From IMG/VR virus record IMGVR_UViG_3300006226_001721, positions 10,314-74,313 of that record: DNA of 64,000 bases; one strand, 5' to 3'. This stretch comes from a virus. This document shows positions 5,436 through 24,403 of this stretch, piece by piece (positions within the stretch are counted from its first letter, which is position 1; the number at the start of each line of letters is the position of its first letter). The notes beneath the pieces are model-generated. The model did not search any database, was not told the DNA's origin, and worked only from the letters and a program-made list of their open reading frames with translations. The translations under genes were made by a program, and so were the position numbers.

Positions 5436-5472
5436 CATATATTATATAAGATTAACTTCTCAGTCGTTCAAA
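5436..5472 (-). promoter_or_regulatory. Sigma70-like early promoter, copy 1
   Basis: TTTGAACGA-N11-ATCTTATATRATATATG with identical spacing at 38018-38054 and 56518-56554. Confidence 0.7.
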
Positions 5473-5487
5473 TATCTCCTAATTATT

Positions 5488-6381: not shown

Positions 6382-6393
6382 GTACTAATTTAT

Positions 6394-7053
6394 ATGAGCA
6401 TAATAACAAATTTTGCAAAAATATATGCCGCTAATAAATTAACAGAAAGTTGTTTTGGGGGAGGTGGAGGATGTCACACTAATCGTCCAGAAAGCTGGGA
6501 ACAATATGAAGCTAGAATAAAAGCAGAAAAAGATGCTAGAAAAGCTGAATTAAAAGATTTAAGATCACAATATCCAGGACATTCTGGTACATTAGCTGAA
6601 TTTAGAATAAAAGCAGAAGAAGATATAGAAGAGTGTGAATCTATAAAAGCCGGGAAAGCTCATCCACATTATAGGTCTATGGGATATGTAGTAGATTATT
6701 ATGAAAGAGTCATCAAAATGTTGAACTTAAAACTTAAAAAGTTTAACGATAAAGGTGGCTTATTATTTGAATCTTCGTTGTATACTTTATTTGCTACTAT
6801 TTATAGCAAATCTAGACTTTTAGAAGGTTGTGGTGGTGGCGGGGGCAGTTGTAGTAGTCGTACATCTTTACCAAAACTTACAAAAGCAGAAAGAGAAGCT
6901 GAAAAAGAAAGACACGCTAGAATAAATGCTGAAAGAGAAGCTGAACAAATGGCTTCTTACAAAAGAAATCTTAAAAAAATTCCTCAACTTAAAAAACAGA
7001 TAAAATACCTTTGTGATACATTAAATATTGATGCTAATCTTTATTTACTTTAG
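6394..7053 (+). CDS. Two-repeat hypothetical protein, probable capsid-internal polyprotein
   Basis: Repeated FAxIY...LxE followed by SCFGGGGGC and GCGGGGGSC, each followed by a charged helical segment. Confidence 0.5.
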   Translation: MSIITNFAKIYAANKLTESCFGGGGGCHTNRPESWEQYEARIKAEKDARKAELKDLRSQYPGHSGTLAEFRIKAEEDIEECESIKAGKAHPHYRSMGYVVDYYERVIKMLNLKLKKFNDKGGLLFESSLYTLFATIYSKSRLLEGCGGGGGSCSSRTSLPKLTKAEREAEKERHARINAEREAEQMASYKRNLKKIPQLKKQIKYLCDTLNIDANLYLL

Positions 7054-7164
7054 TCCGTTTACTCTGAAATTCTGAAAAGGCTAAATTTACCTTTAAAAAG
7101 ATAAGAAAATCTTAGTAAACAGTTGATTACTATAAGAAGTAGTTAACTCTATTAACTAAATAAT

Positions 7165-8151
7165 ATGAGATTAGAAAAAGATGCATTGTTGAAAAGTAAG
7201 AAACAGTTACCCTTTTATGATGGGCCAAATTCTGTCAAACCAGGCTCTCGTGGAAGAACTATCGACTACGAATTTGAAGGACAAGACTTATCTGCATTTG
7301 TACAATGGGATAAGCTACATCTTCGCAAATATTCACCAATGATAAGTCCAAGTGATGGTCATGTTCTAACTGACCAAGAGATAGATCTACTCATTCGTTC
7401 TGTTACTCAAGGCTTCAGAGAAGACGCATTCGAATCTACTGAGCAATTCATTCATTATCTTTCTTATCGTCAGTTGCTTCCGGAAAAGACATATTCAGCT
7501 TGGGAGGCTGATATTTCAGTTTGTCGGTTCTTTACTAATAAAGTTGGAGAAAAAGAAGAGAACATACTATCAGACATTCGTCGTATCAATGAAGAACAAG
7601 GAATGGGCAATGTCAAAATTCCTGACACAAACATAGAGATCATTAACTATAGTCCTTGTCCAAAATGCAAAACTATTCATTCGTTCTCAGATGTGTTCAA
7701 CTATTATATGAACCCAACACCAGACCCTCGTTTCAAATCTAAGCAAGAACAATACGCTTTAGACACGCGAGTTCAATGCAAAGAATGCAATGACTATTTC
7801 TTACCAGCATTGATAGTAACAGACGGCTCACCTAAGAATGAATGTCAACTTATTTGTCGCTCTCAGACAATGAGAGAGGTAGTAGTGTTCATGCAAGAAT
7901 CCTATAGCTTACGAGTATTGACAATGAAGAAAGAGAACATATTGACTCACCCAGAAGATCCAAACAAACGAGCTTGGAGAAATGATGTTGATGCTAGACT
8001 ACTCAAGACAAGACAGACTCTCTTTACTAATTTCTTACAGTACACTCCAGCACCTAATATTTTGAACTTCATAACGCGAAAGAACTTGACACTTCAAGAA
8101 CCTATGTATGGTGCTTGGATGCCAAAAGAGCACGTTAAATATTACGAATAA
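7165..8151 (+). CDS. Hypothetical protein with two CxxC zinc knuckles
   Basis: CPKC and CKEC; ACTAAATA motif 2 nt before ATG. Confidence 0.6.
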   Translation: MRLEKDALLKSKKQLPFYDGPNSVKPGSRGRTIDYEFEGQDLSAFVQWDKLHLRKYSPMISPSDGHVLTDQEIDLLIRSVTQGFREDAFESTEQFIHYLSYRQLLPEKTYSAWEADISVCRFFTNKVGEKEENILSDIRRINEEQGMGNVKIPDTNIEIINYSPCPKCKTIHSFSDVFNYYMNPTPDPRFKSKQEQYALDTRVQCKECNDYFLPALIVTDGSPKNECQLICRSQTMREVVVFMQESYSLRVLTMKKENILTHPEDPNKRAWRNDVDARLLKTRQTLFTNFLQYTPAPNILNFITRKNLTLQEPMYGAWMPKEHVKYYE

Positions 8152-8390
8152 TTTTCACTTAAGTCTTTAAGAACAGCCCCAATTTTCTTCTTATCATAAA
8201 GATCGACTGGGCCAGTGTTGATTCCCAGTTCAGCCATCTTAGCTTCAAAAGCTGGACGAGCACTTTGATGCATAAAGCCTGGTCCTTGCTCTCTTAATGT
8301 TTGTATTTCGTAATCTAATGGGGCATAAGCTATTGCATTTAGCTCAGCTATTTCTTCTTCTGTGAATGGACAGTCTGGATCAAATCTCAT
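8142..8390 (-). CDS. Hypothetical protein
   Basis: ORF with ACTAAATA motif 2 nt before ATG. Confidence 0.55.
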   Translation of the reverse strand: MRFDPDCPFTEEEIAELNAIAYAPLDYEIQTLREQGPGFMHQSARPAFEAKMAELGINTGPVDLYDKKKIGAVLKDLSENYS

Positions 8391-8411: not shown

Positions 8412-9065
8412 ATGAGCAAGAATATCTATAGAGCATTGAAGGGCACCTGTCCATATGTCCTACTTTTCGGAGTAGTTGTTGGTATTTCTTTGCTGTTGCA
8501 ATGTTTCATTCCATTCTTACAAAAGATGGCCGAACTTCGAAATGGAGAATGGCAATGGTTCTTGAACATATTCAACTCACAGTTCGTATTACCAATGGAT
8601 GTCATATCTCAGTTTTGGGCTGCGATATCAGCCACATATGTTGGATTAGACAGAGCCGCTTACACATTTGATGCATTTAAGAATGGCTCAGAGACAGTTG
8701 CCTTTGATGAGACTAGGATGGTACAACTTACTCAAGTCATCTGGTTATCATTCATCATATATGCTATGTCAGTTGGTCTTAATGCATTCTTTAATGCTGA
8801 ATTAGCGCTAACTCCATTGTTTGTATCGTTTGGTTCATCTATGCTTTGTTACGTTGCCGGCAATAAGGCAGTTGTAGCATTGCAACGACTTTCTAAATAC
8901 GACGATGACGACGATGAAGATTCAGATGGTGAAGGTGAATTCTTAGAGGGCTTAACTGAAATTCAAATGAAGACAATGGAACGACTATCTAATCTACTTC
9001 GTCAAAATAAGCAGTTCATAGTTAAGATTGACAAAGAGTCTAAGATAATTGGAATGTCGCACTAA
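8412..9065 (+). CDS. Multi-pass membrane protein
   Basis: About four hydrophobic segments followed by an acidic tract. Confidence 0.65.
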   Translation: MSKNIYRALKGTCPYVLLFGVVVGISLLLQCFIPFLQKMAELRNGEWQWFLNIFNSQFVLPMDVISQFWAAISATYVGLDRAAYTFDAFKNGSETVAFDETRMVQLTQVIWLSFIIYAMSVGLNAFFNAELALTPLFVSFGSSMLCYVAGNKAVVALQRLSKYDDDDDEDSDGEGEFLEGLTEIQMKTMERLSNLLRQNKQFIVKIDKESKIIGMSH

Positions 9066-9607
9066 AGAATCGGCTTCTTCTTTTTGCTTCCAATATTACG
9101 CACTACATTTATGAATTGTTGAAATGTCTTCTTCGGCTGTTCATAAGAAATAGCATCAATAATAGTATCATTGTACTCTTTGCTACTTTTCTTAAAGTTA
9201 TCATTTATAGTCTCTTTAACCAATGACTTTCTACTCTCAGCCATCAACTCATGAGGTCTAATATTGTCCATGTCAACAGCTTCGCGAACTTCTCTAAAGT
9301 CATTCTTAACTCTGTCATAATAGAAGATCCCGCCATAGACACGAAGTGACTCTCTGATGCGGAAAAGAGTGTACTGTCTATCTTTCTCTAACGTTTCATT
9401 TAGAATGTCAGTCATTATCTTCTCAAACTTATCACGTTTGAGATACATCTTGATACTACCATCATCTAAGACAACCCTAACATTATCACGCAATGGATTG
9501 ACTATCCATACTATAAAGATGAACTGGTCAAAATACTCTTTAGTTTCTAATATGCGCTTGGGTTCTAATAGACCTTCTGGGTTGACTTGTTGATTACTGT
9601 CTGACAT
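9062..9607 (-). CDS. Hypothetical protein
   Basis: ORF downstream of the methyltransferase with GGAGG SD. Confidence 0.6.
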   Translation of the reverse strand: MSDSNQQVNPEGLLEPKRILETKEYFDQFIFIVWIVNPLRDNVRVVLDDGSIKMYLKRDKFEKIMTDILNETLEKDRQYTLFRIRESLRVYGGIFYYDRVKNDFREVREAVDMDNIRPHELMAESRKSLVKETINDNFKKSSKEYNDTIIDAISYEQPKKTFQQFINVVRNIGSKKKKPIL

Positions 9608-10889
9608 CTGTCCTCCAAAATGCTTGTTTAGTTGGATGAATATTGTCGTGGAACATTATGCCGAGCTCACCAGCTTTAGGCCAGTTTTCTAATACTCGTT
9701 TGCACTCATTGATCCAAAAGTATGCCGTGCCAACTGGAACATTCTGACCAATGACAGAACCAAAAGTGAAGCGCGTATGTTGATACTCAAAGTCTGCGGG
9801 GAGTCCCATTAGATGCATATACTCACGGAATGTCAAACATCTATCTTCTTTAGGATGAAGTGCTGACCAACTATTACCATGATAGACAGTGGGGAACTTC
9901 TCATTGCCAACTGAAAAGAACGACCTATCAAAGTAGCCTTTTTGAATAGCACGCTTACTGATGCAATAGTCATAATGCGCTTTAAGTTTGGCGTCTTCGT
10001 GGAACTTATAGAACTCATCTGACAACTTGTTAGCTATTATGAAGCTTTTGAAGCGACATCGTTCAACGGTATCTCTCCAGTTAGGCCCGAACTTCTTCTT
10101 TAAGAATTTGAACTCTAAGTTCTCAGTGACATCATTTAAGATATGCTCCGCGCTATTTTGACTGGCCTTTTTTGGAATCTTAGCTAGGTACTCTAACACA
10201 CCAGCTTCTTTAGCTTGTTCATAATTCAACATAGGAGGAGCTATTCCTTTCCAAAAGATAACGAATGTTCTAGGTCGACTTTGTATGTTGTGGTGTAGAT
10301 TAGTGTCAGTCTTTATGTAAGTAACTGAGTAGCTGTTAGCCATTGCGACATCATTAAGATACTCTCTAACTAAGTTCCCCTTATTGGTGTACAACCCAGG
10401 CGCATTCTCAAAGATATAGACTTTTGGCTTAATGCTTTGTAAGACATATTTAGTTAAGAACTTAAGATTGTTGTTCTTAGAGCTATCTAATTTGCCGTGA
10501 TCTTGCGTGTTAGCACCAGATAGGCCACTACAAACTGGCACTGCACAAACTAAGTCTATCTCACCGCCCTTATAGTTGTCTAATTGCTTGAGATCAAATG
10601 GGCTACTATACTCATTGTCATTTTGATAAGTTACTGGTGAACCCCATTCGTAGTCAAACATGCCATGGGTGAATTGAATGTAAGGCGGAAGTGATTTCTT
10701 CTTCTTTAGATACTCGAGTAAGTGTCGTTCGTTACCCATGTTGATACACTTACCATCTTTGTTGAAAATCTTTTGTTCGAGACCAGGATATGATAGGATC
10801 CATTTAGCTGGATTCTTAAATGCTTGTTCAGCTGCCACATACATTCCACCAGTTAATGGTTGAATTGCCGCCCATTGTAATGTACTCAT
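9594..10889 (-). CDS. dcm: DNA cytosine-5 methyltransferase
   Basis: PLTGGM (motif I variant), PVCSGLS (PC), FENAPGL (ENV), QSRPRTF, LTFREYMHLMGLP, IGQNVP. Confidence 0.85.
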   Translation of the reverse strand: MSTLQWAAIQPLTGGMYVAAEQAFKNPAKWILSYPGLEQKIFNKDGKCINMGNERHLLEYLKKKKSLPPYIQFTHGMFDYEWGSPVTYQNDNEYSSPFDLKQLDNYKGGEIDLVCAVPVCSGLSGANTQDHGKLDSSKNNNLKFLTKYVLQSIKPKVYIFENAPGLYTNKGNLVREYLNDVAMANSYSVTYIKTDTNLHHNIQSRPRTFVIFWKGIAPPMLNYEQAKEAGVLEYLAKIPKKASQNSAEHILNDVTENLEFKFLKKKFGPNWRDTVERCRFKSFIIANKLSDEFYKFHEDAKLKAHYDYCISKRAIQKGYFDRSFFSVGNEKFPTVYHGNSWSALHPKEDRCLTFREYMHLMGLPADFEYQHTRFTFGSVIGQNVPVGTAYFWINECKRVLENWPKAGELGIMFHDNIHPTKQAFWRTDVRQ

Positions 10890-13138: not shown

Positions 13139-13744
13139 ATGAGTAAAGGTATTGTAATTGCAGATATCGATGACACAATGATCAAAGCAGAAGCAGGAGA
13201 TATCGGCATTTGGAAGCTAAAAGATGGTAAAGAGACTCGCTTATCAACAGATGATTTCGCTAAAGATCCAGACAAAGATGATCCAAAGGTCAAATTTGAC
13301 TATCGAGAATTCAACGATCCAGAAAAGGTAAGAGATAGTATCATTAATGGCACACCTTTACTTAAGAACTTAAAGATCATAGACAACTATTTGAGCAAAG
13401 GATTTGACTTTGCTTTTCTAACAGCTCGAGGTAGTGAAGATGTCATTAAAGAAGTGATGACTTCGTTCTTAAAAGACAGAGATAAAGATGGTCATCTTAA
13501 GCATATAGGTGATAAGTTCAATAAGACTCTCTCATTTGCCGTTAGTGATGAAAAGTACTGTGAGATATTAGACGGCATTAAAGATTTTGATAGAAAGGCT
13601 AAAGTCATTAAGACAATAGCTGAAATGTATGATAATGTTGCTTTCATCGATGATGATATTAGGAATCTAGTAGCAGTTAAGAATTTGCATTTACCAAATG
13701 TGAAGATAATTCGATCATTGAAAGAATCTACAGACCAAACTTAA
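13139..13744 (+). CDS. HAD-superfamily phosphatase/nucleotidase-like protein (start moved to 13139)
   Basis: IADIDDT, LTARG, K, FIDDD motifs. Confidence 0.7.
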   Translation: MSKGIVIADIDDTMIKAEAGDIGIWKLKDGKETRLSTDDFAKDPDKDDPKVKFDYREFNDPEKVRDSIINGTPLLKNLKIIDNYLSKGFDFAFLTARGSEDVIKEVMTSFLKDRDKDGHLKHIGDKFNKTLSFAVSDEKYCEILDGIKDFDRKAKVIKTIAEMYDNVAFIDDDIRNLVAVKNLHLPNVKIIRSLKESTDQT

Positions 13745-14600
13745 ATCCAGTCTTTAACTCGTGTTCATATCCAGGTGGGCAAGGTACTACATCTCTGCCC
13801 GTAGCATTCATAACAGCACAAACACCATGCTTCCATCCTATTTCACCTGGCCATTTCTTATTCAGCCAGCGCCAAACTTCAATGTGTTGTTCATTGTCAT
13901 TTTCGTTCCAACAAATAGAACTCTTTTGCATATGATCTTTCTCGCCTGTTTTGTACATAGCATTCACAAAGCGTATAGTCTTACCATATAGCCGCTTCTT
14001 TCCGATCTGCATAGACAAGTCGTTATCTTCACCTCGCCCTCCAGGTGCTGTTACATCAAAGTTGATGTTGTGCTTAGCTAATATGTCTATGTTAAGACCA
14101 TAACAGCCGGCTATCAATGTCTTAGTAGACTTTTGAACTAATCGCATGTCTTCTTTGATCGCAAAATTGATGAAGCCCATAGTAACTGGCTTAATGAATG
14201 CGTCTTGTTGTATGTCGAGGAACTGCTCCATTGTAGCAAAGAATGAAGCCATGCTAATGTGCATCGTTTTCTTATTAGTATTCTGAGTTATGAATCGACG
14301 ATAATCATCATCAACAGACCAATAGAAATGATAGCCATGCTCTTTTAGCCAGTTGAACATAAAGTGCCGCTTTTCAGCTATGTTGTATCGAGGGTGATAG
14401 ACTAGCTCATTCTCTTCTGAGTAAGTGCCTCGTTGGTCTTCATCTAAAAAGACTATAAGCTTAAGTCCACATTCTTTAGCTAACTGAAATGTCCGACCAT
14501 TCGGCCGACCTCGAGAAGGAACTACTACTGGGTGAATGGGCTTGCCGTCTATGATATGATCGAGATGGTTAAATGCCACGGCGCTTTCCTGCTCTGACAT
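13728..14600 (-). CDS. GT-A fold glycosyltransferase, phage DNA-modifying (TAGT/GREB1-like) type
   Basis: VVVPSRGRP, NIAEKRHF, WSVDDDY, GEDNDL pattern. Confidence 0.55.
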   Translation of the reverse strand: MSEQESAVAFNHLDHIIDGKPIHPVVVPSRGRPNGRTFQLAKECGLKLIVFLDEDQRGTYSEENELVYHPRYNIAEKRHFMFNWLKEHGYHFYWSVDDDYRRFITQNTNKKTMHISMASFFATMEQFLDIQQDAFIKPVTMGFINFAIKEDMRLVQKSTKTLIAGCYGLNIDILAKHNINFDVTAPGGRGEDNDLSMQIGKKRLYGKTIRFVNAMYKTGEKDHMQKSSICWNENDNEQHIEVWRWLNKKWPGEIGWKHGVCAVMNATGRDVVPCPPGYEHELKTGFKFGL

Positions 14601-15276
14601 ATGTGTCTTTCTTACCGAAGTATTTGGTATCTAACTTATAGAGTGTTTCAAATTCGCTATCAAACCAAGCTAAAAGTTGTTCGGCTTTTTCTTCGTTCTT
14701 TATACAGTGAATCTCTATAGCAAAGTATTGCACACTCTTTGGCAACTTAGTCCAGTCTATTGTGTATTCTCCACCTTCAGTGTCGCACTTAATGATAGTT
14801 GGCTTGTACTTCTTAAACTCATCATAGAAGTCTACTGTCTTAACAGTAATCTCTTTGCGACCTTTAGTTGGGATGATACTGTGTCGTCCCATGCATTGCT
14901 TTTTGTTGGGCTTTCTTTCTGTGATATAGAACTTAGTTTCACCATTGCTATCAGTAACAGCTACATTGTTCAATATGACTCTTGTTGGATCTAATTCCTG
15001 TTCAGAAAGTACTAGAAAATTCTCAGGTTCTGGTTCGTAACTTATGACACGCTTAGCACCCGCCTTGAGTGAAAGAAAGGTGAACATACCAATGTTAGCC
15101 CCAATATCCATTACAGTATGTCCTTCACAAACTTCAAAAATAGCCTTGTATTCTCTGAGTTCTTTTAGAACATCGATATCTAATGTGTCAGGACGATATT
15201 TGAAGCCTGTCTTTTCATCTGTTGCTATTATGAGTTCATTCACAAGTTGAGTCTTTTCTCCAAACTTATATGCCAT
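14569..15276 (-). CDS. FkbM-family SAM-dependent methyltransferase
   Basis: VMDIGANIGMF, SYEPEPEN, NVAV, IKCDTEGGE. Confidence 0.85.
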   Translation of the reverse strand: MAYKFGEKTQLVNELIIATDEKTGFKYRPDTLDIDVLKELREYKAIFEVCEGHTVMDIGANIGMFTFLSLKAGAKRVISYEPEPENFLVLSEQELDPTRVILNNVAVTDSNGETKFYITERKPNKKQCMGRHSIIPTKGRKEITVKTVDFYDEFKKYKPTIIKCDTEGGEYTIDWTKLPKSVQYFAIEIHCIKNEEKAEQLLAWFDSEFETLYKLDTKYFGKKDTYVRAGKRRGI

Positions 15277-16181
15277 TAGTTACTCCCAAAATGAAAGCCA
15301 GCATTCTTGGCCTTCTCTGATTTACGAATGTTGTGTGCATTATTTAGTACATCTTCTTTCCAATGTTCATATGTGTCTACTCGATATGTCCAAAATCGGG
15401 GATGATAAGACTTACTCATAGATGGCGCGACATCAATAATGTTGACTTTCAACTTGATTAGTGTGTTAGCGTGACCGTGTTTCTTATAGAGTTCATATCC
15501 TAACATTGAAGCTTTATCATTCCCGGCGGCTGCAATGCTCTTCCCAACTGTTTCGCTATCCTGTGTACCAGATTTGATAATGGCATATTCATTGAATGTT
15601 TGTGGTAAGATTCCCATTTTCCGCATTTCAAGAGCAAAGTCAAAATCGTCCCAAGTTGCAACACCTGTTTCAAATGTTGGTACTATTCCATATCTTTCTT
15701 GATAGATTTTCAAATTAAAGTAGATACATGAATATGGAATTTGATTAGAGTACTTTTTGCCAGTTTTAAGTTTGAAGCGCTTAAAGTTGGCTCCTATGAT
15801 TCCGCCATATACTTCTTCAAAGTTAGGAAGTGCAGCCCGCTTTTCATATTTGAGTGGCTCATCATCTTTCATATTTGCAGCGTCATACTTATTGAAGCCA
15901 GTAATATCATCATCTATAATGAGTAACTGTTCATAACCATTATCTATTGCATATCGTATTATGTTATTACGAATCGTTGGTACAACGGGTGTCTTAAAAG
16001 GGCCGCCATCATCCATTAGAATACCAATTTTAGGATCTAAGTTCCAGTCTGGATATCTATTAGTTGGATAGAACACTATCATATCTTGTGTTTTGTTAGT
16101 TTGGAATGTTAGAAAATCACTATCATATATTTTAGACTTTGGTCCATTTCCAGCTAAAACACCTATCATTAATTTCTTCAT
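15276..16181 (-). CDS. Second GT-A fold glycosyltransferase (TAGT/GREB1-like)
   Basis: PTIRNNII, LIIDDDI, WDDFDFAL pattern paralleling 13728..14600. Confidence 0.5.
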   Translation of the reverse strand: MKKLMIGVLAGNGPKSKIYDSDFLTFQTNKTQDMIVFYPTNRYPDWNLDPKIGILMDDGGPFKTPVVPTIRNNIIRYAIDNGYEQLLIIDDDITGFNKYDAANMKDDEPLKYEKRAALPNFEEVYGGIIGANFKRFKLKTGKKYSNQIPYSCIYFNLKIYQERYGIVPTFETGVATWDDFDFALEMRKMGILPQTFNEYAIIKSGTQDSETVGKSIAAAGNDKASMLGYELYKKHGHANTLIKLKVNIIDVAPSMSKSYHPRFWTYRVDTYEHWKEDVLNNAHNIRKSEKAKNAGFHFGSN

Positions 16182-16570
16182 TTAAATTCTTCCTCATTCT
16201 TTATAGTTTCATATCCATAAGCAACAGCTTTCAATATCTCTTCTTCAATTACTTTAATACTTTGATGATAATTCTTATATGAATCTGGCAAATAATCTTC
16301 TCTACTCATTTTAGTTACTTTATGTATTGCCTCCAATTTCTTTTTAAGACTTAACAAGTCATTTATATTTTTTCCAATGTTATCTAATATTATCTCAACA
16401 TTAGATTTTGTTGTCTTTTTAGATGGCGGAACTTTTGCAAATGCTTTTTTGATTGAACGCTCATCTTCTTCTCCAATAAGATCTTCTGGATCTATTTTTT
16501 TAAATGTGGTAGATTCTACTCCTGCTAATAAAGCATCAATTTCATCTTGACTTAGAGATCCGTCACTCAT
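16178..16570 (-). CDS. Protein with a FliM/FliY-type N-terminal CheY-binding peptide
   Basis: MSDGSLSQDEIDALLAGV contains LSQxEIDALL; remainder is not FliM/FliY-like. Confidence 0.65.
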   Translation of the reverse strand: MSDGSLSQDEIDALLAGVESTTFKKIDPEDLIGEEDERSIKKAFAKVPPSKKTTKSNVEIILDNIGKNINDLLSLKKKLEAIHKVTKMSREDYLPDSYKNYHQSIKVIEEEILKAVAYGYETIKNEEEFK

Positions 16571-16585
16571 AGGCACAATTTTATA

Positions 16586-16888
16586 TTAACTGTACAAATC
16601 TCTAAAGTCGTCATCAAAAGAAGATTTCTTCTCTTGCAATGAAAATTCTTCAAAATCTAAATCTAATGTTTTAACTTCTATATTTTTGATTTCTTTAATT
16701 GTTTTCAAATCTTTTTTAATTTCTTCTTTTATATTTTTCTTTTTTGGTATTGTTATAGAGTCTTTATATCGAAATCTATGATATAAAAACTCTATTAAAT
16801 AACAAAGAATAAAAAGACAAAGAAATGTAATAATTAAACAAGCAAAAATATAATCAATTATCCCGAACATACTCCTCTTCTGAAGCAT
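16586..16888 (-). CDS. Small membrane protein
   Basis: N-terminal hydrophobic helix. Confidence 0.55.
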   Translation of the reverse strand: MLQKRSMFGIIDYIFACLIITFLCLFILCYLIEFLYHRFRYKDSITIPKKKNIKEEIKKDLKTIKEIKNIEVKTLDLDFEEFSLQEKKSSFDDDFRDLYS

Positions 16889-17032
16889 AAATCATTTTAT
16901 TTTCTTCATATAATTTGACTAAAATTTTATATAATTCTTCTTGTTTTTGCTTATTTAATTCTATAATTCCTACTGGTGTCTTAAATTCATTAATCCAATA
17001 TTCAATTCTGTCTGTCATTTTGAGTGCTCCTT

Positions 17033-18424
17033 TTAAAGATTATCAATAATTTCTTTTACTGTTTTTTGTGATTGCTCTATAACTTGATCCATATTAAGAT
17101 ACTGCCAAGAACCTTGTCTTCCAGTAAAATAAATATTTGAATTATTAAAATAATCAAATATTATTTGTTTGTTTTTCTGTTGATCTAAATCATTTATTAC
17201 ATAAGCATTATTAAAATCAAAAGTTTCTATTGTTTTTATTTCTAATTTTCCAAATAATTTTTCTAATCCTTCTGTAATTTTTTTAGGATAATATCCTCTA
17301 ATAAATGTAGGACTATCATCTCTTTCTGTGACTTCTGTCATAAATGTAGTTGTTCCTGAATTATGATAATTTTTTCCAAAAAAATCCAATTTTGAAAATC
17401 TATGAAATTTTATACCAACATCAGCCGAATAAAAAGCAAAATTATTTCCTCCAATATCTCCTTCAATAGTTACTATTCCAATATTTATTTTATTGGAAAT
17501 TAATTTTTGTGCTGTTTCTTTTACTATTTTATGATTAGTATCATAATTTTTTACAAATGTTGTTAATGGAATTGTATTTATTAAGATATCATAATTATAA
17601 CTTAATTCAGTAGTTTCATTAATTGTACTTTTAATTACTACAACAGGTGGTTCATTTTTATTTATTTCTTGTTCTGTTATAGAAGTTTTTCCATCTGTTA
17701 GTCCAAAAGAATGTATTTGTTTTTTAGTAATTTTATGAACTTTTTCATTTAATCGTATTTTAATTTTATTATTTAATTTTTGTGCAAAGGAATCTATAAA
17801 AGTTTTTGTTCCACCAGATTCCGGATAAAAGAAATTTAACTGGTGAAGATAGCCATCGACAGTTTCTCCTTTTAATGATCGTTCTATATCTTCAATAGGT
17901 GGTTTTGGTATTCTTTCTACCATTTGTAAATCCATAAAAGTTGGATCAAACTTCCATATTTTTTCATTATATGGTAATAAATATAATTTTGAAATTCCAA
18001 CTCCAAAAGTTTTAAGAAAGAATTGTCTCATATTAGTTGCTTCATAATTTTCATACGGATTATTTCTAAAAGTAGACTCTACATATTGTTTTTCTCCTTC
18101 AGATAATTTTCCTAAATCATTTTCAAATGGATATTGTAAGTATTTTTTATCATGAATTATTATATTAGAACGTCTATGAACATTAATATTAGGCATCATT
18201 ATATCTTCCATAAAATCTAATGTATCTTTATTTTTAGAAAAGAATATATGAGGACCAATATCAAAAGTTATCCCAGATTTAGACTTAAATGACCTACAAA
18301 GACCACCTAAAGTATCTTCTTTTTCTATAATAATAATTTCATCTATATCAGGATTATCTTGAAGAAAATAAGCCGAACTTATTCCAGCTAGACCTCCGCC
18401 TAAGATAACAACTCTTTTACCCAT
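17033..18424 (-). CDS. FAD-dependent UDP-galactopyranose-mutase-like enzyme
   Basis: GGGLAG dinucleotide motif, GGLCRS, FDIGPHIFFS, YPFEN, PYNEKIW, YPESGGT, GRQGSWQYLNMDQ. Confidence 0.7.
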   Translation of the reverse strand: MGKRVVILGGGLAGISSAYFLQDNPDIDEIIIIEKEDTLGGLCRSFKSKSGITFDIGPHIFFSKNKDTLDFMEDIMMPNINVHRRSNIIIHDKKYLQYPFENDLGKLSEGEKQYVESTFRNNPYENYEATNMRQFFLKTFGVGISKLYLLPYNEKIWKFDPTFMDLQMVERIPKPPIEDIERSLKGETVDGYLHQLNFFYPESGGTKTFIDSFAQKLNNKIKIRLNEKVHKITKKQIHSFGLTDGKTSITEQEINKNEPPVVVIKSTINETTELSYNYDILINTIPLTTFVKNYDTNHKIVKETAQKLISNKINIGIVTIEGDIGGNNFAFYSADVGIKFHRFSKLDFFGKNYHNSGTTTFMTEVTERDDSPTFIRGYYPKKITEGLEKLFGKLEIKTIETFDFNNAYVINDLDQQKNKQIIFDYFNNSNIYFTGRQGSWQYLNMDQVIEQSQKTVKEIIDNL

Positions 18425-18433
18425 TAAAATATC

Positions 18434-19015
18434 CTAATTAAAAGTTATATGTTTGTAACAATCAAAGATAATATGGTCAATAATTAAAGATAAGTCTTCA
18501 AAAATGCCCATATTATTTGTTTCTAGATGAAATGATTTTTTTGCTGTTTCTTTTAACTTTCCACCATTAAATCCAACTATAGCATAAGTAATAGCATTGT
18601 TCTCATTAGCATATTGCATTGCTTTAATTACATTTTTAGAATTGCCACTACCAGAAATTCCCAATACTAAATCTCCTGGTTGTAAAAAGTTCTTTAACTG
18701 TTCAACAAAAATATCATCATAACTAGCATCATTAGCAATGGCTAACATAGTTGGAATATTGTCATTTAAGCAGATCATCTTAAATCGAGTATCATTTTGA
18801 TGATTAGCATAATTCATTCCCTTATTAAAGTCGTTTGCCCAATGTGATGCTGTTGAACCAGAGCCACCATTTCCCATAACAAATATTTGTCGTTTTTCAT
18901 TTCGAGCTTTAATCAACTCTAAAATTAGATCTATAAGAAGAGTATCTTTCTTTTTTAACTCATCTAATTGTGCTTGCAAATCTGCAATATATTTGTGTAC
19001 ATTAGTTATTAGCAT
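18434..19015 (-). CDS. gmhA: SIS-domain phosphosugar isomerase (sedoheptulose-7-P isomerase-like)
   Basis: MGNGGSGSTASH, AIAND..YDDIF.EQL, GISGSGNSKNV, EDLSLIIDH. Confidence 0.85.
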   Translation of the reverse strand: MLITNVHKYIADLQAQLDELKKKDTLLIDLILELIKARNEKRQIFVMGNGGSGSTASHWANDFNKGMNYANHQNDTRFKMICLNDNIPTMLAIANDASYDDIFVEQLKNFLQPGDLVLGISGSGNSKNVIKAMQYANENNAITYAIVGFNGGKLKETAKKSFHLETNNMGIFEDLSLIIDHIIFDCYKHITFN

Positions 19016-19952
19016 TCATTAACTCCTTAATTGCCTTTTTAACTGCATTATCAGAAGATAAATCTAAATCAAATCCAAGTTTGTGCAACTTATCTGTATT
19101 ATATTTGAAAGTATTTAAGTCACCAACCCATCCAATATCTTCTGTTCCATATCTAATTGTGTTACAATTAAATTCAGCCGCGCACCATTCAGCCATATTT
19201 TTGATAGTTGTTGTAGAATTATCCATTGGTGCGACATTATATACATTAACTCTTCTAGATGAACTTATCCACGAATACATAATAGCATCTATCAAATCTT
19301 TAACATGAATATATGGCTTATGCTGTGTGCCATTTCCTAATACTTCTAATTGTGTTGAATCTTTCTTTAATCTCTCTATAAAGTCATAAAGAGCACCATG
19401 TGTCATTCGTGATCCAACTACATTTGGAAATCTTATTATCCAAGCTCTAATATCATAATTGTGAACAAACGATGATATAAAACTTTCTGATGCTAATTTA
19501 GCAGCGCCATAATGAGACACTGGCATTAATGGTCCATGATTTTCTTGAACTTGAAGGCTACCAGTATCTCCATAAATAGCAGAAGTAGATGCGAATACAA
19601 ATTGTTTTATCTTATAGATATCAGCAACACACAACATATCATATGTAGTCTTAAATGTGCGATCAAAATCTATTCGAGGGTTTTTGTGAGATTTAGATAT
19701 ATCTGAATTAGCAGCAAAGTGAAATATCACATCTGATTCTTTTAAGTATTCATTTTCTACATATGATAGTTTGGTGATATCTTGTTGTATGAAAGTAAAT
19801 CTAGGATGCTTAGGATTTATCAGATGAGCGAGATTTTTAAGATTTCCTAATGATAAGTCATCAATACCAATCACGCTATAATCTCGCTTAATAAGTTCGT
19901 CAACTAAATGACTTCCAATAAAGCCCGCAGCACCGGTTACTATACATTTCAT
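19002..19952 (-). CDS. NAD-dependent nucleotide-sugar epimerase/dehydratase (extended SDR)
   Basis: TGAAGFIGSH, FASTSAIYG, YGAAK, RFPNVVG. Confidence 0.9.
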   Translation of the reverse strand: MKCIVTGAAGFIGSHLVDELIKRDYSVIGIDDLSLGNLKNLAHLINPKHPRFTFIQQDITKLSYVENEYLKESDVIFHFAANSDISKSHKNPRIDFDRTFKTTYDMLCVADIYKIKQFVFASTSAIYGDTGSLQVQENHGPLMPVSHYGAAKLASESFISSFVHNYDIRAWIIRFPNVVGSRMTHGALYDFIERLKKDSTQLEVLGNGTQHKPYIHVKDLIDAIMYSWISSSRRVNVYNVAPMDNSTTTIKNMAEWCAAEFNCNTIRYGTEDIGWVGDLNTFKYNTDKLHKLGFDLDLSSDNAVKKAIKELMNANN

Positions 19953-19955
19953 GTT

Positions 19956-20624
19956 CTACTCCAATTCTAACAAATTAGTCAATGTTATTTCTACTGAGGA
20001 TCCTGGCTTGACTATTTTCCAAGGTTCTTGATCTTCTCTATAAAAAGTTGTTGACATTTCATTGTAAGCATTCTTTACTCTAGTTTCAAAAAGAACAGTT
20101 TCATTATCAAATAAGTCATGCTCATTATCTTTTCTATTTCCAACTTTCTCAGGGAAATAATAGATGATATTAGGAATAACGTCCTTATATGGATTTTTGA
20201 ACCAATTTAGCAGATCAATTGCAACTCTTTGACCTTGAGTTTTAGTTAAGTCATCTATTAACTTTTTGCCAAATAACTGATATGCTACAGTAGAATAGGT
20301 GTATCTATCACATATAACTGTTTTGCCTTCTTGTAATGCTGGACGAATAATCTTATCAACACATTCAGCTCTATCTAAAAGAAAGGCAAATAGATTTCCA
20401 TAATCTGATAAGTTCCATCGTTTGTCTTTACACAATGATCTTAATGTTGTAGCTAATGGACCCCAATCTCCACCAGGTTGTCGTGTTAAAATAGTTGATA
20501 TATTGTTTTGACTTAAAGTATCTGCTAATAGTTCAGCAACAGAACTTTTTCCAGTATTTTCGTAACCTTCAAAAACTATAAGTTTTTTAGTAAAATGATC
20601 TATTTGTTTTGGTGTTAAAATCAT
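19956..20624 (-). CDS. tmk: Thymidylate kinase
   Basis: FEGYENTGKS, TRQPGG, LLDRAE, CDRYTYSTVAYQ. Confidence 0.85.
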   Translation of the reverse strand: MILTPKQIDHFTKKLIVFEGYENTGKSSVAELLADTLSQNNISTILTRQPGGDWGPLATTLRSLCKDKRWNLSDYGNLFAFLLDRAECVDKIIRPALQEGKTVICDRYTYSTVAYQLFGKKLIDDLTKTQGQRVAIDLLNWFKNPYKDVIPNIIYYFPEKVGNRKDNEHDLFDNETVLFETRVKNAYNEMSTTFYREDQEPWKIVKPGSSVEITLTNLLELE

Positions 20625-21259
20625 AGGCTTTCATCATATATAGAATTCCAAGCTGTTTCTGTCATATTAAGATTAGTTACCTTATCCTGATAGACATCAT
20701 CTACATCCTTCCCGTCTTCTTTTCTAACATAAAGATTAAGAGCACCCTTAAATTCACTTTTTGGTGTAAAGTTGATATCCTCTGATACTTGAGAACAGCC
20801 AAAGTTCAACTCATCTGCTAAATCACAAATAGTTTTTTGATAGCCTTTCATATTCTCAATAGCTTGCCAAGTTTCATCTACATCATTAACTCTAACATCT
20901 TTATTGCTAACAGTAATTTCAACTCCTTTAGCTTTCAATGCATCAAAGTAGACATCTAACATATCTAATTTGCCAATGGCAGCTAAATCATCTACTATTT
21001 GAAGTAACTTTCTAAATGTTGGTGTTACTCTGTCTGGGAACTTTTCATCAGGATCTCTGCTCAATGGATCATTTCCAACCCAGCCACTTCCTCGGTAATA
21101 AGCATAATCTTTACAACGAATCATAATTGGCTTTTCTATCTTTTGCATTTTAGCCATATCTGCACCAATCATATTCATGTGTTTACTATTAGTCTTTTTC
21201 TCTCTTAAAATTTCGGCTGACTCTTCTAATAGTTCAGCAGGTGTAGTAGTCTGTGACAT
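20621..21259 (-). CDS. Hypothetical protein
   Basis: ORF with GGAG SD and GTTAATATA motif upstream. Confidence 0.6.
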   Translation of the reverse strand: MSQTTTPAELLEESAEILREKKTNSKHMNMIGADMAKMQKIEKPIMIRCKDYAYYRGSGWVGNDPLSRDPDEKFPDRVTPTFRKLLQIVDDLAAIGKLDMLDVYFDALKAKGVEITVSNKDVRVNDVDETWQAIENMKGYQKTICDLADELNFGCSQVSEDINFTPKSEFKGALNLYVRKEDGKDVDDVYQDKVTNLNMTETAWNSIYDESL

Positions 21260-21291
21260 ATTTTATCTCCTTAAATGTCTTTTATTTTATA

Positions 21292-21834
21292 TTAACTATC
21301 ATGATATTGTTCTATATCTATCGAACTTTTAGAATAATGTCCTAAAAGATTAATGATATCTGCACCATTGTATTCTTTAAAATAGCGCTTATTATCTATA
21401 ATAATCTGTCTGTTGAAATTAGTAACTTGGCTTTCTATGTCTCTATCATAATAATGGTCAAAGATGATTCGTTTGATACCAGCAGCAATTACTAATTTAG
21501 CACAATTTTTGCAAGGACAAATAGTAGTGTAGAGAGTTGATCCTTCTGGAGATAATCCGCGCTTTGCTAAATCTAATATTGCGTTCATTTCGGCATGTAT
21601 TTCATATTGTTCTGAAAAAAGATGATGTTCAGATTGTTCTTTGTTATCTCTTAAGTTCTCACAAGCCTCATTACAGTTGATAAATCCGCTGGGTGTGCCA
21701 TTATATCCACAACCAATAATACGATTATCTTTAGTAATAACAGCACCAACTTTTAATCGAGAACATTTAGACTTTTCAGCCATTATTCGAGCAATTTCTA
21801 TAAATGTTTTGTCCCATTCTTTTTGATTAGGCAT
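21292..21834 (-). CDS. dCMP deaminase
   Basis: KVGAVI, GYNGTPSG, HAEMNA, PCKNC. Confidence 0.9.
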   Translation of the reverse strand: MPNQKEWDKTFIEIARIMAEKSKCSRLKVGAVITKDNRIIGCGYNGTPSGFINCNEACENLRDNKEQSEHHLFSEQYEIHAEMNAILDLAKRGLSPEGSTLYTTICPCKNCAKLVIAAGIKRIIFDHYYDRDIESQVTNFNRQIIIDNKRYFKEYNGADIINLLGHYSKSSIDIEQYHDS

Positions 21835-21996
21835 CTTTTTTCCTTTGTTTGAGTCTTTCTTTTTTACTCATTTTGATTTTTGGTTCATGTCTTCTTATAG
21901 ACCCCTCATAATGAATCCAATATTTGTTTGTATCTAATGTTTCATGAGAGAGATTTTCATATCTTTCTTCAAATGTTTGTTTCTTGTCTTCCATTT

Positions 21997-22809
21997 CTAT
22001 AATTTATAATAGTCTTGAAATTCTTTAATGATTTTATTTACTAAATCAAAATCTCTTTCATAGACATGTAATGATCCAGCATTCCAATAAATACTTCCAA
22101 TTTCTGGATCTCTATTGCTAAACATTTTGATATCACTTAATAGTTGATTATACACATATCCATGCCATGGAAGATCTCCACAATGTAATCCTCTAATTAC
22201 ATCATTACTTCTCATAGTTACAATGTATTCTAATTTGTTCTTACGAATGAAATGTTGAGTACAAAAAGTACAAGTAAAATCTGATTTAGCATTTACATTA
22301 TCATTCCATTCCCATTGCATTTGAGGTCTGCCATAATAGATGACAGACTGTCTTCCTTCTGGTTTATCACAAAGTTGTTCCAAAGCATATTTATATTGAG
22401 ATTTGCCAATTTTTGCTGGACCTAAGTTCTCTGGACCATTTGGATATCTTTCAGCACCCCAATTATTTCCATTCTCTGGACTAAATACACACCAACCATA
22501 ATTACTATTTACTCTCCCATCATCAGAACATATTTTAGACCAAATAGGATTATCTTCAATACCAGGGTGACCTTTGATACATCTATCTTGACTTAAATAC
22601 CAATTAGTTTCATTTTCAATGTATTTAAGTTGCGGCTTTCTTGCTTCACCTAAATAGAGCTTAGTATCTTGAGCCTCAAATACTAAATTAGCATTCAAAA
22701 TCTCAGCTGTGCCATTTACTAAATCATTTTTTTGAATCTTTTCCCACAATGGAAATAAAGCATTCTTAATTAAATAAATAGAATTTCTACTATATTTTGT
22801 TTGTTCCAT
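21997..22809 (-). CDS. dCMP hydroxymethylase-like enzyme (T4 gp42 family of the thymidylate synthase fold)
   Basis: ENETNWY, NSNYGW, RPQMQ, DFTCT (catalytic Cys), MRSND, GDLPW (Asp at the specificity position), WNAGSLHVY align with T4 gp42. Confidence 0.8.
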   Translation of the reverse strand: MEQTKYSRNSIYLIKNALFPLWEKIQKNDLVNGTAEILNANLVFEAQDTKLYLGEARKPQLKYIENETNWYLSQDRCIKGHPGIEDNPIWSKICSDDGRVNSNYGWCVFSPENGNNWGAERYPNGPENLGPAKIGKSQYKYALEQLCDKPEGRQSVIYYGRPQMQWEWNDNVNAKSDFTCTFCTQHFIRKNKLEYIVTMRSNDVIRGLHCGDLPWHGYVYNQLLSDIKMFSNRDPEIGSIYWNAGSLHVYERDFDLVNKIIKEFQDYYKL

Positions 22810-23338
22810 TTAAAGTTTCCTTTATTATTTCAAATACTTGTTCTGGTGATTTTTGATCTATATTTATTAAACATTTATTTTTTATATTAGATTTTTCGAA
22901 AAAGCTAGAAAAACGATTTATTTCATTTTGTTTTTTCTCAAATTCAACTGAAAATGATAGACCATCTTCTCTCTTTATTAAGTTTTCTGGATTATCTATA
23001 AATACAAATAAAATACAATTTTGTAATACTTTATTTCCAAAATTAGTTTCTATTTCATAAACATATTCACCAGAATAATTTCTATAAATAGGAGAATAAA
23101 CAGTTTCACCTCCATGAGCTCTATCAAAAATTAAATTTTTATTATTATAAGTTGCAAATTTGATTAAATCAAACATTTCTTTATAATATTGTTTGGATCT
23201 TTCTTCTATATTGTTGCCTTTTATTGAAGAATAGTGTAATACATGAACTAATTTATCTTTTTCTTCTAAATACTTTTTAATGTTAGATATTTGAGTTCCT
23301 TTTCCAACATTATCAGGTCCTTCACATACAATTACCAT
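22790..23338 (-). CDS. Second dNMP (thymidylate-type) kinase
   Basis: CEGPDNVGKGTQ P-loop, FDRAHGGE. Confidence 0.75.
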   Translation of the reverse strand: MVIVCEGPDNVGKGTQISNIKKYLEEKDKLVHVLHYSSIKGNNIEERSKQYYKEMFDLIKFATYNNKNLIFDRAHGGETVYSPIYRNYSGEYVYEIETNFGNKVLQNCILFVFIDNPENLIKREDGLSFSVEFEKKQNEINRFSSFFEKSNIKNKCLINIDQKSPEQVFEIIKETLNGTNKI

Positions 23339-23355: not shown

Positions 23356-24003
23356 TTAAATTAACTTAAGAAAAAGCTCACCATAATTATTATAGTGATA
23401 TCTGATACCATTATCTAAACAATATTTTTTAAGATTATCATCATTTTTATTATCTACCACATAAAGTTTTCTTTTAAGAATATATTTCTCTTTTAGAGAT
23501 TTAATTAACTTCTTATAGTCATCTGATATAACTATAATACTAGTAAATTTATGATTTATGATTTCTTGAGTTGCTAATTGGTTATAGCTTTTATCTGTAA
23601 TAATCCCACAAAGACTATTAAATTGTTCATAAAATAATCGAGGTCCAGTAAACTGAGTAGGTGTTCCTATCCATAAACAATAAGGAGCTCTCCATTCTCC
23701 TATTTTTAGTGTCTTGGCGATTTCTACCGATTCAAGAGAAAAATCTGTTTTGAAATCTTCCCACTCTTGAAAATGGTCAGGATTTTCTATCGCGCCACCT
23801 TTGAAAGCTAAAAGAGTTAGATGTGTAGAATCTATTGCAGTCCGCCATTCTTTTTCTAATTTCTTTTCTTTTAATTTGATTTTAAGTTGTTCATATAAAG
23901 AAATCTCTTCTTCACCTTCACCTATATCAATATACATTCCTCGTTCACCATTAGCTGGTCCATAAGGAAATAATCCAAATGTAACATCATTAAGCTTTAG
24001 CAC
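23356..24003 (-). CDS. Hypothetical protein
   Basis: ORF in the operon. Confidence 0.55.
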   Translation of the reverse strand: MLKLNDVTFGLFPYGPANGERGMYIDIGEGEEEISLYEQLKIKLKEKKLEKEWRTAIDSTHLTLLAFKGGAIENPDHFQEWEDFKTDFSLESVEIAKTLKIGEWRAPYCLWIGTPTQFTGPRLFYEQFNSLCGIITDKSYNQLATQEIINHKFTSIIVISDDYKKLIKSLKEKYILKRKLYVVDNKNDDNLKKYCLDNGIRYHYNNYGELFLKLI

Positions 24004-24403
24004 TTTCTTGTTCCTTTATTATTTTCTCTCTAATTATATCTTTATTTTCTATAAAGTTATCTATTTTTCCTTTTAATTCTTCTAAAATCTTATCATAAGA
24101 TTTAGATCCTTTTTTCTCATTTGTAGAATATAATTCAGTAACTGAATACTCTATTCGTTTTTCTTCATCATAATAATATAAGGTTGTTCTATTATCTTTT
24201 CCTGGTCTAATGGAACACTTTAATCCTTTTTCGAAGGTGTATTCAAAGACTTCTTGAATTAGTGGGTCCATTTCAATTTTAGGTGCTAATTCTACTGCTT
24301 TTGTTTCTAATTGTTTTAAGTTTTTGATGAACTTAATCAAACTGAATAATAAACCTAAAGTTATTACGTTAAAAATAAATTGTATAATGATAATTATTTC
24401 CAT
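23990..24403 (-). CDS. Membrane-anchored hypothetical protein
   Basis: N-terminal hydrophobic helix. Confidence 0.55.
   Translation of the reverse strand: MEIIIIIQFIFNVITLGLLFSLIKFIKNLKQLETKAVELAPKIEMDPLIQEVFEYTFEKGLKCSIRPGKDNRTTLYYYDEEKRIEYSVTELYSTNEKKGSKSYDKILEELKGKIDNFIENKDIIREKIIKEQESAKA

Follow-up and report, generated by a model that had tools for sequence, protein, structure and literature searches.

A jumbo-phage gene cluster predicted to build a heptose-type sugar on 5-hydroxymethylcytosine

Introduction

Whether a given restriction, CRISPR, glycosylase or type IV system can attack a phage depends on the sugar coat of its DNA, which also affects sequencing and cloning. Known coats consist of glucose, gentiobiose, arabinose or galactose/glucose chains, with heptose known from one reconstituted cluster. 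Here we analyse a 64,000-nucleotide stretch of viral DNA (the window; bases 10314-74313 of the 93,990-base IMG/VR record IMGVR_UViG_3300006226_001721, referred to as G000), in which 16 minus-strand open reading frames (ORFs) run head to tail from 24403 down to 13728 and are predicted to encode a pathway of cytosine hypermodification. An earlier note, made from the letters of the window, had proposed a new pathway of furanose or heptose type at this place, and its gene inventory and coordinates hold for every gene that it named, all of them on the minus strand.

The T-even phages (T4 gp42, gp1, gp56 and the alpha- and beta-glycosyltransferases (GTs), and the TAGT enzyme of T2/T6) resemble the window cluster in several respects: their dCMP hydroxymethylase acts before replication and has the same active-site signature, they have a nucleotide kinase and a dCMP deaminase, and glycosyl transfer follows replication and involves a TAGT-family enzyme of the GT-A type. 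The window cluster, however, has neither a GT-B alpha- or beta-GT nor a recognisable gp56-type dCTPase, and its kinase has the thymidylate kinase (Tmk) fold and is not gp1-like. Where the T-even phages use host UDP-glucose, the window phage encodes an isomerase, an epimerase, a mutase and a methyltransferase, and its genomic backbone is that of a jumbo phage rather than of the Straboviridae. The characterised member of the TAGT family is the T2/T6 beta-glucosyl-HMC-alpha-glucosyltransferase, a GT-A enzyme that adds a second glucose to glucosylated 5-hydroxymethylcytosine (5-hmC, or hmC), and many phages carry solitary TAGTs whose function the same study calls undefined (PMC13216743).

Phages RB69, DLP3 and RL38J1 resemble the window phage in combining a thymidylate synthase (TS) homolog, a Tmk-like kinase, GTs and phage-encoded sugar-nucleotide synthesis (PMC13326640). 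RL38J1 also has a mutase of the UDP-galactopyranose mutase (UGM) type, proposed to supply a furanose donor by a UDP-galactofuranose route, and carries galactose/glucose chains on 5-hydroxycytosine (5hoC) (PMC13326640). The TS homologs of these phages are flavin-dependent synthases of 5-hydroxy-dCMP (5hodCMP) with D169N, whereas the window enzyme keeps Asp169. Their GTs are GT-B where those of the window are GT-A/TAGT, and their sugars derive from ribulose-5-phosphate (arabinose) or UDP-Gal, with no FkbM enzyme, where the window route is of the GmhA/heptose type. The earlier note had drawn on RB69-like phages as systems that add arabinose by means of SIS isomerase and kinase genes; the arabinose chains are carried on 5hoC and not on hmC (PMC13326640).

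Metagenomic clusters of the TET/5mYOX type place hexose, N-acetylhexosamine (HexNAc), Kdo-like and heptose sugars on TET-made 5hmC (bioRxiv 10.1101/2023.12.21.572611). One of them, 'contig 53', is like the window cluster in its mono- and di-heptose on 5hmC, its phage GT and its phage sugar-activating enzymes. In contig 53, however, 5hmC is made after replication at specific sites by a C5-methyltransferase plus TET, whereas the window cluster has no TET and would make hmC at the nucleotide level. Contig 53 also relies on a HAD/APH bifunctional enzyme, a cytidylyltransferase and a GT-B enzyme, and it has no mutase, epimerase or methyltransferase.

A further parallel comes from the capsules of C. 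jejuni HS:10/HS:41, where tailoring by a short-chain dehydrogenase/reductase (SDR) is followed by an FADH2-dependent UGM-type mutase that yields GDP-heptofuranose. The action of UGM-type mutases on GDP-heptopyranoses is the accepted heptofuranose route in these capsules, and it was still listed as uncharacterised in a 2023 review (PMC10680097). The C. jejuni acceptor is capsular polysaccharide and the route passes through 4,6-dehydration to 6-deoxy sugars, whereas the window encodes a plain 4-epimerase-like SDR and its predicted acceptor is DNA. We found no paper in the literature searched that joins a gp42-type hydroxymethylase, a GmhA-type heptose route, a mutase and a methyltransferase. The novelty is tempered by the heptosyl-5hmC already known from the TET-type metagenomic cluster and by the link between the UGM/UDP-galactofuranose route and the hexosylated 5hoC of RL38J1.

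Results

A compact cluster shared with a complete relative

Intergenic gaps in the cluster range from -32 to +32 nt, with a single exception of 144 nt after the flavoenzyme gene. G+C content (GC) is 22-34% in most of the genes and 36-42% in the last three. For comparison we used IMGVR_UViG_3300010167_000010 (G001), a relative of the window phage with 329,018 bp, terminal repeats and 100% completeness, together with an ENA locus of that same phage (L002); cluster identities were measured against L002/G001. G000 itself is a fragment, with a CheckV completeness of 29%. The gene order of G001 matches that of the window cluster at protein identities of 25-77%, and because of the tight packing and the same order in the 329-kb relative, the arrangement is not due to chance. 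A promoter and terminator scan returned sites no more numerous than in shuffled sequence and was uninformative.

From the genes described below we favour the following account, which we consider probable. The phage would make 5-hmC before replication, two TAGT-family GTs would add sugars after replication, at least one of those sugars would be a phage-made furanose derived from heptose, and an FkbM enzyme would O-methylate the glycan. Our confidence is greatest for hmC synthesis, lower for DNA as the acceptor, and lowest for the heptofuranose identity and the methylation.

The thymidylate synthase homolog is predicted to make 5-hydroxymethyl-dCMP

We aligned the TS homolog (21997..22809) with E. 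coli ThyA, T4 gp42 and RB69 gp48, taking the sequences from annotated records. Its best solved relative is T4 dCMP hydroxymethylase (PDB 1b49, E = 1.8e-35; the best thymidylate synthase reaches 2.6e-06), and it is 34-37% identical to gp42 homologs. The catalytic Cys (E. coli C146) lies in SDFTCT, aligned to SDFMCT in T4 and ALAPCH in E. coli, and the motif CGDLPW places an Asp, aligned to T4 D179, where E. coli has N177. We took Asp instead of Asn at this position as the mark of a dCMP rather than a dUMP substrate. Both residues had been singled out in the earlier note, and the alignment bears it out. An Asp also occupies the E. coli L143 position, three residues ahead of the Cys, as in T4; an acidic residue at this position admits water, leading to a hydroxymethyl rather than a methyl product (PMC13326640). 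The same signature is present in the orthologs of three related phage contigs.

The position of E. coli D169 bears on which modified base is made. RB69, DLP3, RL38J1 and other 'hydroxymethylase-like' enzymes make 5-hydroxy-dCMP, and all have Asn here (PMC13326640, 2026), RB69 gp48 reading RSQN. The window enzyme, L002 and the phage contig L016 read RSND, keeping the Asp as in T4, and the contig L013 reads RSGD. The retained Asp169 therefore leads us to predict 5-hm-dCMP as the product and not 5-ho-dCMP, so that of the two bases allowed by the earlier note the 5-hydroxymethyl type is preferred over the 5-hydroxy type. A gene for a TET/JBP dioxygenase was not found in G000 or in the complete G001. 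This led us to reject the route by methyltransferase plus TET, and any hmC must therefore come by the nucleotide route.

Next to the TS homolog, and overlapping it by 20 nt, lies a gene (22790..23338) for a divergent kinase of the thymidylate-kinase fold (Pfam Thymidylate_kin, 33.4 bits; phrog_761) that is 72% identical in L002. Tmk-like kinases adjoin the TS homologs of RB69, DLP3 and RL38J1 (PMC13326640), and by this analogy the window protein is the natural candidate for the 5-hm-dCMP kinase; its likeness to RB69 gp45 is confined to the P-loop. The other of the two dNMP kinases recognised earlier (19956..20624) is a dTMP kinase above the TIGR00041 cut-off (90.5 bits; cut-off 83.25), and the gene at 21292..21834 encodes the dCMP deaminase already named in the earlier note (Pfam dCMP_cyt_deam_1, 85.7 bits; phrog_174, E = 4.7e-55). 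Between deaminase and dTMP kinase lies an acidic 212-aa protein (20621..21259), the best-conserved gene of the module, which is 77% identical in L002/G001 and also occurs in L013 and L016. Pfam, PHROG and NCBIfam searches gave no match for it, and Atlas and PDB-profile searches returned repeat-protein noise only. It might supply a function that the module otherwise lacks, for example by removing dCTP or by acting as a coupling factor of the replisome.

A mutase, an epimerase and an isomerase point to a heptose route

The flavoenzyme (17033..18424) had been described as UGM-like and proves to be a true member of the UGM family of FAD-dependent NDP-sugar pyranose-furanose mutases. When 24 homologs were combined into a family profile, it matched the UGMs of T. 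cruzi and A. fumigatus over their full length (PDB 4dsg, E = 1.8e-37, positions 2-418 of 439), and the top 34 PDB matches of its AlphaFold2 model (pLDDT 79) in Foldseek are all UGMs, at TM 0.77-0.80. The motifs GPH59, HR342 and GR436FGSxxY442xN444 are invariant across the 24 family members. His59, Arg342, Arg436 and Tyr442 align to identical residues of T. cruzi UGM, Asn444 lying beyond the printed alignment, and we take the positions of the His-loop, Arg and Tyr to be those of the UGM active site. Against the Glf equivalog TIGR00031 the protein scores 62.2 bits, with a cut-off of 303.75 and a match to the N-terminal part only, and it is not a canonical Glf. Being so far under the Glf cut-off, it forms a distinct UGM subfamily (PRK07208-like), whose substrate need not be UDP-Gal. 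Bacterial proteins about 48% identical to the phage mutase are numerous (2062 at E <= 1e-5), some of them fused to an NTP-transferase domain; a mutase search of phage genomes gave one weak match.

For the SDR (19002..19952), the closest solved relative is PhGal4E_1 of P. horikoshii (PDB 8rdg, E = 4.7e-68, residues 1-315, full length), a promiscuous GDP-sugar 4-epimerase (PMC12171764). Its STS...YGAAK aligns with the catalytic Y145 region of PhGal4E_1, and the Ser/Thr-Tyr-Lys triad is present. The protein, correctly called an epimerase before, is closest to GDP-sugar 4-epimerases, and both a preference for GDP-sugars and epimerisation at C4 are predicted.

The catalytic residues of GmhA are Glu65 and His180 (E. 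coli numbering). The SIS protein (18434..19015) keeps GNGGS, the Ser-rich loop and the invariant His180, and Asp replaces Glu65 both in the phage proteins and in the homolog from a bacterial operon described below. TIGR00441 gmhA is its best-scoring family (E = 5e-27; 94.8 bits), under the equivalog cut-off of 209.45, so that the GmhA-like assignment of the earlier note stands at the level of best family but not of equivalog. We predict that the protein is a sedoheptulose-7-phosphate isomerase.

The link to heptose is stronger than the earlier note could see: a bacterial operon that includes a GHMP kinase has, in consecutive genes, homologs of the SIS, the SDR and the mutase of the phage. In this operon (locus L005) the order is SIS, GHMP kinase, SDR and a fused NTP-transferase::mutase, with FkbM- and TylF-type methyltransferases downstream and a HAD hydrolase upstream. 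The phage SDR is 42%, the SIS 39% and the mutase 47% identical to its counterpart there, and the HddA and HddC of G001 are 45% and 32% identical to theirs. A second, unrelated bacterial context (L024) holds an HddC::GmhB fusion, a GHMP kinase (HddA), a SIS (GmhA), three GT2 genes and a mutase, and a third is a polysaccharide cluster with no heptose genes in view. The bacterial subfamily of the mutase thus lies in GmhA/HddA/HddC operons in two of the three sampled contexts, and sequence comparison traces the phage sugar genes to a bacterial operon.

As the earlier note remarked, no sugar kinase or nucleotidyltransferase is visible in the window, and the same is true of the whole 94-kb record. 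The HddA/HddC-type genes that it suggested looking for elsewhere in the genome were not found in G000 but are present in G001, the complete relative. Its genome codes for an HddA-like kinase (NF049969, E = 1.8e-44) and, elsewhere, an HddC-like nucleotidyltransferase adjacent to a GmhB-like phosphatase (PRK08942, E = 5.6e-45), so that GmhA, HddA, GmhB and HddC are all found in the complete genome. Among cellular proteins, HddC::GmhB fusions come closest to the phage HddC. The same two metagenomes also contain a third variant of the mutase and a third pair of HddC and GmhB genes. A tblastn search of G000 with the HddA, HddC and GmhB of G001 and their neighbour genes gave no match; as G000 also lacks homologs of the genes flanking them in G001, these regions are unsampled and the three genes are not shown to be absent. 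In the most economical interpretation of these sequences, the phage would make GDP-heptose, epimerise it at C4 and contract it to a furanose, with a stereochemistry that is unreadable from sequence.

The same DNA logic could operate with another sugar, galactofuranose. The SDR would then be a GalE that turns UDP-Glc into UDP-Gal, the mutase a Glf that turns UDP-Galp into UDP-Galf, and the product galactofuranosyl-hmC; the SIS protein would be unrelated to the pathway, for example by boosting host heptose or by serving as a DiaA-like replication factor. GalE is indeed the top NCBIfam match of the SDR (E = 4.8e-36, under cut-off), every solved relative of the mutase is a UDP-Galp mutase, G000 has no heptose-activating genes, and in phage RL38J1, which has a UGM, galactose is the sugar nearest the base on 5hoC (PMC13326640). 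Against this, the solved SDR closest to that of the phage is GDP-specific, and the mutase reaches 62 bits against the 304-bit cut-off of the Glf equivalog. Moreover, the bacterial mutase subfamily is fused to nucleotidyltransferases and keeps company with heptose genes in most of the contexts sampled, the SDR, SIS and mutase genes of the phage adjoin and overlap one another, and HddA, GmhB and HddC are encoded by G001 itself. DiaA is also a match of the SIS protein, a weaker one (2e-15, against 5e-27 for GmhA), and with the operon context this led us to rank a DiaA-like reading low. We regard galactofuranose as unlikely, though it is the alternative that best withstands the evidence.

Two TAGT-family glycosyltransferases and an FkbM methyltransferase

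Returning to a heptofuranose destined for DNA, the enzymes that would transfer and methylate it are encoded by the last three genes of the cluster. Both GTs score above the gathering score of 27.5 for Pfam TAGT (PF20691), the first and conserved one (15276..16181) with 34.4 bits and the second, fast-evolving one (13728..14600) with 46.8 bits, and both match PHROG 842 (phrog_842), 'beta-glucosyl-HMC-alpha-glucosyltransferase', the second with E = 3.5e-13. Each has a DDD motif (IIDDDIT in the first, with D90 invariant; SVDDDY in the second), and both are predicted to be soluble, with no transmembrane segment in either. The family of the first GT is very small, with nine matches among 1.84 billion representatives, and its AlphaFold model, built on eight sequences, has a pLDDT of 57 overall and is reliable in the N-terminal half only. 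With this model Foldseek returned only GT-A enzymes (RmlT, TarP, SpsA, LH3) and phage TAGT proteins, at a low TM of 0.3-0.46. Both of the GT-A transferases of the earlier note are therefore TAGT members by profile score, and the modelled fold of the first is consistent with GT-A rather than proven.

The two GTs differ in their conservation. The first is 69% identical in G001 and the second only 25%, and the second has a GC of 41.6% compared with 22-36% in the upstream genes, which is consistent with a recent gene replacement. Searches with the second GT found no match by tblastn against phage genomes, no related IMG/VR loci when it was the sole query, and only itself in a word-based search of a large protein collection. 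The methyltransferase gene (14569..15276) overlaps both GT genes, and its product belongs to the FkbM family of S-adenosylmethionine (SAM)-dependent enzymes, as had been noted before, with scores above the cut-offs of TIGR01444 (70.5 bits; cut-off 37.7) and Pfam Methyltransf_21 (47.5; cut-off 22.7). FkbM genes recur in all related cassettes, and we predict that the enzyme is a sugar O-methyltransferase.

Related phages keep the hmC module and exchange the sugar genes

In G001 the kinase next to the TS homolog is conserved at 72% identity, the hydroxymethylase at 61%, the 212-aa protein at 77%, the SDR at 58%, the SIS at 57%, the mutase at 58% and the FkbM methyltransferase at 39%. Further contigs show which of these genes stay together. 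L013 has a helicase, kinase, hydroxymethylase, deaminase, 212-aa protein and dTMP kinase, followed by GT, TAGT, radical-SAM and FkbM genes. L016 has a similar module with no recognisable dTMP kinase, followed by GT and radical-SAM genes and, further on, an FkbM gene, and the 3.6-kb contig L015 holds only a GT, a TAGT and a homing endonuclease. The ortholog of the first GT comes directly after the hmC module in L013 and L016/L017, while the surrounding genes vary. A radical-SAM enzyme of 437-442 aa (L013:11828-13156, L016:10975-12288), accompanied by FkbM, replaces the SDR-SIS-mutase cassette, suggesting a different tailoring of the DNA glycan or of the base. Judged from these sequences, the hmC module is accompanied by the first GT and by an FkbM enzyme, and the parts open to exchange are the distal GT and the SDR-SIS-mutase trio.

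This kept linkage to the hmC module is what supports the GTs as enzymes acting on hmC or glycosyl-hmC in DNA. A fixed module with a swappable cassette fits a DNA-decoration locus under diversifying (arms-race) selection far better than an envelope-glycan module. According to the envelope alternative, the sugar genes and GTs would remodel a host envelope glycan such as lipopolysaccharide (LPS) or capsule, or would glycosylate phage or host proteins, and would merely lie beside an ordinary hmC/nucleotide module. Heptose pathways, UGM-type mutases and FkbM enzymes are typical of LPS, capsule and S-layer clusters, which are the contexts of the bacterial homologs that we found, and the window phage is a jumbo phage with many metabolic genes (among them NrdD, IMPDH-like and NAMPT-like genes). 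However, both GTs fall in TAGT and not in the envelope-synthesis families GT2, GT4 and GT9, they have no membrane segments, and no flippase, polymerase or lipid-carrier transferase is present. In addition, the first GT keeps to the hmC module in all of L013, L016/L017, G001 and the window. We judge an envelope or protein target to be improbable.

Discussion

We propose the following sequence of events, in which the substrates, the order of steps, the GT that would use the heptofuranose and the site of methylation are those that we infer from the enzyme families and catalytic signatures established by sequence and structure comparison. The gp42-like enzyme would convert dCMP to 5-hydroxymethyl-dCMP, the adjacent Tmk-like kinase would take it to the diphosphate and a host NDP kinase to the triphosphate, and the phage polymerase would insert 5-hmC into DNA, with the dCMP deaminase and the true dTMP kinase supplying dTTP. 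In parallel, the GmhA-like isomerase would turn sedoheptulose-7-phosphate into heptose-7-phosphate. The HddA, GmhB and HddC steps would be encoded elsewhere, as in the complete relative, in parts of the genome that this fragment does not sample. The GDP-sugar-4-epimerase-like SDR and the UGM-family mutase would then produce a C4-epimerised heptofuranose nucleotide. After replication, the conserved TAGT-type GT-A enzyme would place a sugar on the hydroxyl of 5-hmC, and the second, fast-evolving TAGT would extend or diversify it, with O-methylation by the FkbM enzyme. The likely purpose of such a coat is to block restriction, CRISPR and modification-dependent nucleases. The di-glycosylation, the O-methylation and the final product foreseen in the earlier note keep the status of predictions.

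Several points weigh against this account, beginning with the fact that all of it is argued from homology. Searches with Pfam NTP_transferase, NTP_transf_3 and GHMP kinase found no HddA, GmhB or HddC in the 94-kb G000. Proteins of the window phage are also present on a 173.8-kb contig, the longest, and a homolog search found no HddC or other heptose-activating copy there. The SIS protein is under the GmhA equivalog cut-off and has Asp in place of the catalytic Glu65. The SDR family also includes UDP-glucose 4-epimerases, which makes UDP-galactofuranose the simpler alternative for the sugar. The model of the first GT is poor (pLDDT 57), and its donor specificity is unreadable from that model.

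Two further difficulties concern the base. MazG, a MazG-like protein and a T4 gp56-type dCTPase were not recognisable in G000 or in the complete G001, and replacement of cytosine by hmC may therefore be partial, or an unknown enzyme, perhaps one of the conserved unknown proteins, may act as the dCTPase. A few genes from the cluster, at 9594-10889 on the minus strand, the window also encodes a C5-cytosine DNA methyltransferase (Pfam DNA_methylase, 65 bits; phrog_116) that is kept at the same place in L002 and L016. Such a conserved neighbour is odd for a genome free of plain cytosine; it may mean that replacement is partial, that the enzyme acts on host DNA, or that it has a different substrate.

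That the TS homolog makes a different base to carry the sugars, either 5-hydroxy-dCMP as in RB69 or 5-hm-dUMP, is the least probable of the alternatives, for although the chemistry of this family has been unexpected (RB69 gp48 was annotated as a dCMP hydroxymethylase until 2025-2026; PMC13326640), the window enzyme keeps Asp169 (RSND) where all tested 5hodCMP synthases have Asn, has Asp rather than Asn at position 177, which argues against dUMP, and finds in T4 dCMP hydroxymethylase its best solved relative by 29 orders of magnitude.

For hmC carrying a heptofuranose, we can tentatively go one step further than the account favoured above. We speculate that in this jumbo-phage lineage the 5-hmC of virion DNA bears an O-methylated heptofuranose and is possibly di-glycosylated, that the phage encodes the whole GDP-heptose/4-epimerase/mutase route from sedoheptulose-7-phosphate, and that an exchangeable cassette slot between the hmC module and the first GT, filled by the heptofuranose kit or by a radical-SAM enzyme, diversifies the DNA coat. 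This fuller version is possible rather than probable; if it is true, neither a heptose in furanose form nor an O-methylated sugar would have been reported on DNA before. The cluster predicts a coat chemically different from those described, with heptose as a furanose ring and methylated, and offers a possible NDP-heptose pyranose-furanose mutase. It is also a complete candidate list of enzymes for expression, with clear mass-spectrometric predictions. The two TAGT enzymes are candidates for the function exerted in 'solitary TAGT' phages (PMC13216743), and the combination of a fixed hmC module and a swappable sugar cassette makes the diversification of DNA glycans directly testable.

Other genes of the cluster and the window

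The remaining ORFs of the cluster have no assigned family. The module is headed by a conserved 137-aa protein (23990..24403; no Pfam or PHROG match), 48% identical to the syntenic gene in L002, whose place in the pathway we infer from this synteny. It is followed by a conserved 215-aa protein (23356..24003) with no family match and 47% identity to its syntenic L002 gene, and a 55-aa ORF (21827..21994), likewise without a family match, begins 2 nt after the TS homolog. Between the mutase and the first GT lie a small 100-aa membrane protein (16586..16888) with one strongly hydrophobic segment (Kyte-Doolittle 3.0) and a weak L002 homolog (30%), and a 132-aa ORF (16178..16576) that overlaps the start of the first GT by 4 nt. 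The 132-aa ORF has no family match and no L002 homolog and is probably outside the conserved pathway.

A megablast search of phage genomes with the 9.6-kb cluster gave no match, and phage-genome searches with the last GT and the mutase found no cultured phage with this cassette. In the bacterial context L024, the heptose operon (1-8332, 8859-10886) ends right beside phage terminase genes, which may mean that a prophage carries this heptofuranose kit or lies next to it. IMG/VR labels G000 a 'provirus'; its closest relative is the 329-kb genome with direct terminal repeats, and the label may be a trimming artefact of a gene-rich jumbo phage. Elsewhere in the window, all on the minus strand, are genes for NrdD (anaerobic ribonucleotide reductase; 451-2265), an IMPDH/GMP-reductase-like protein (2303-3475), a nicotinamide phosphoribosyltransferase-like (NAMPT-like) protein (33902-35143), a CCA-adding enzyme (36293-37705) and a phrog_850 RNA-binding protein (52272-53777). 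These genes suggest that the host is anaerobic and that the phage has an extensive auxiliary metabolism.

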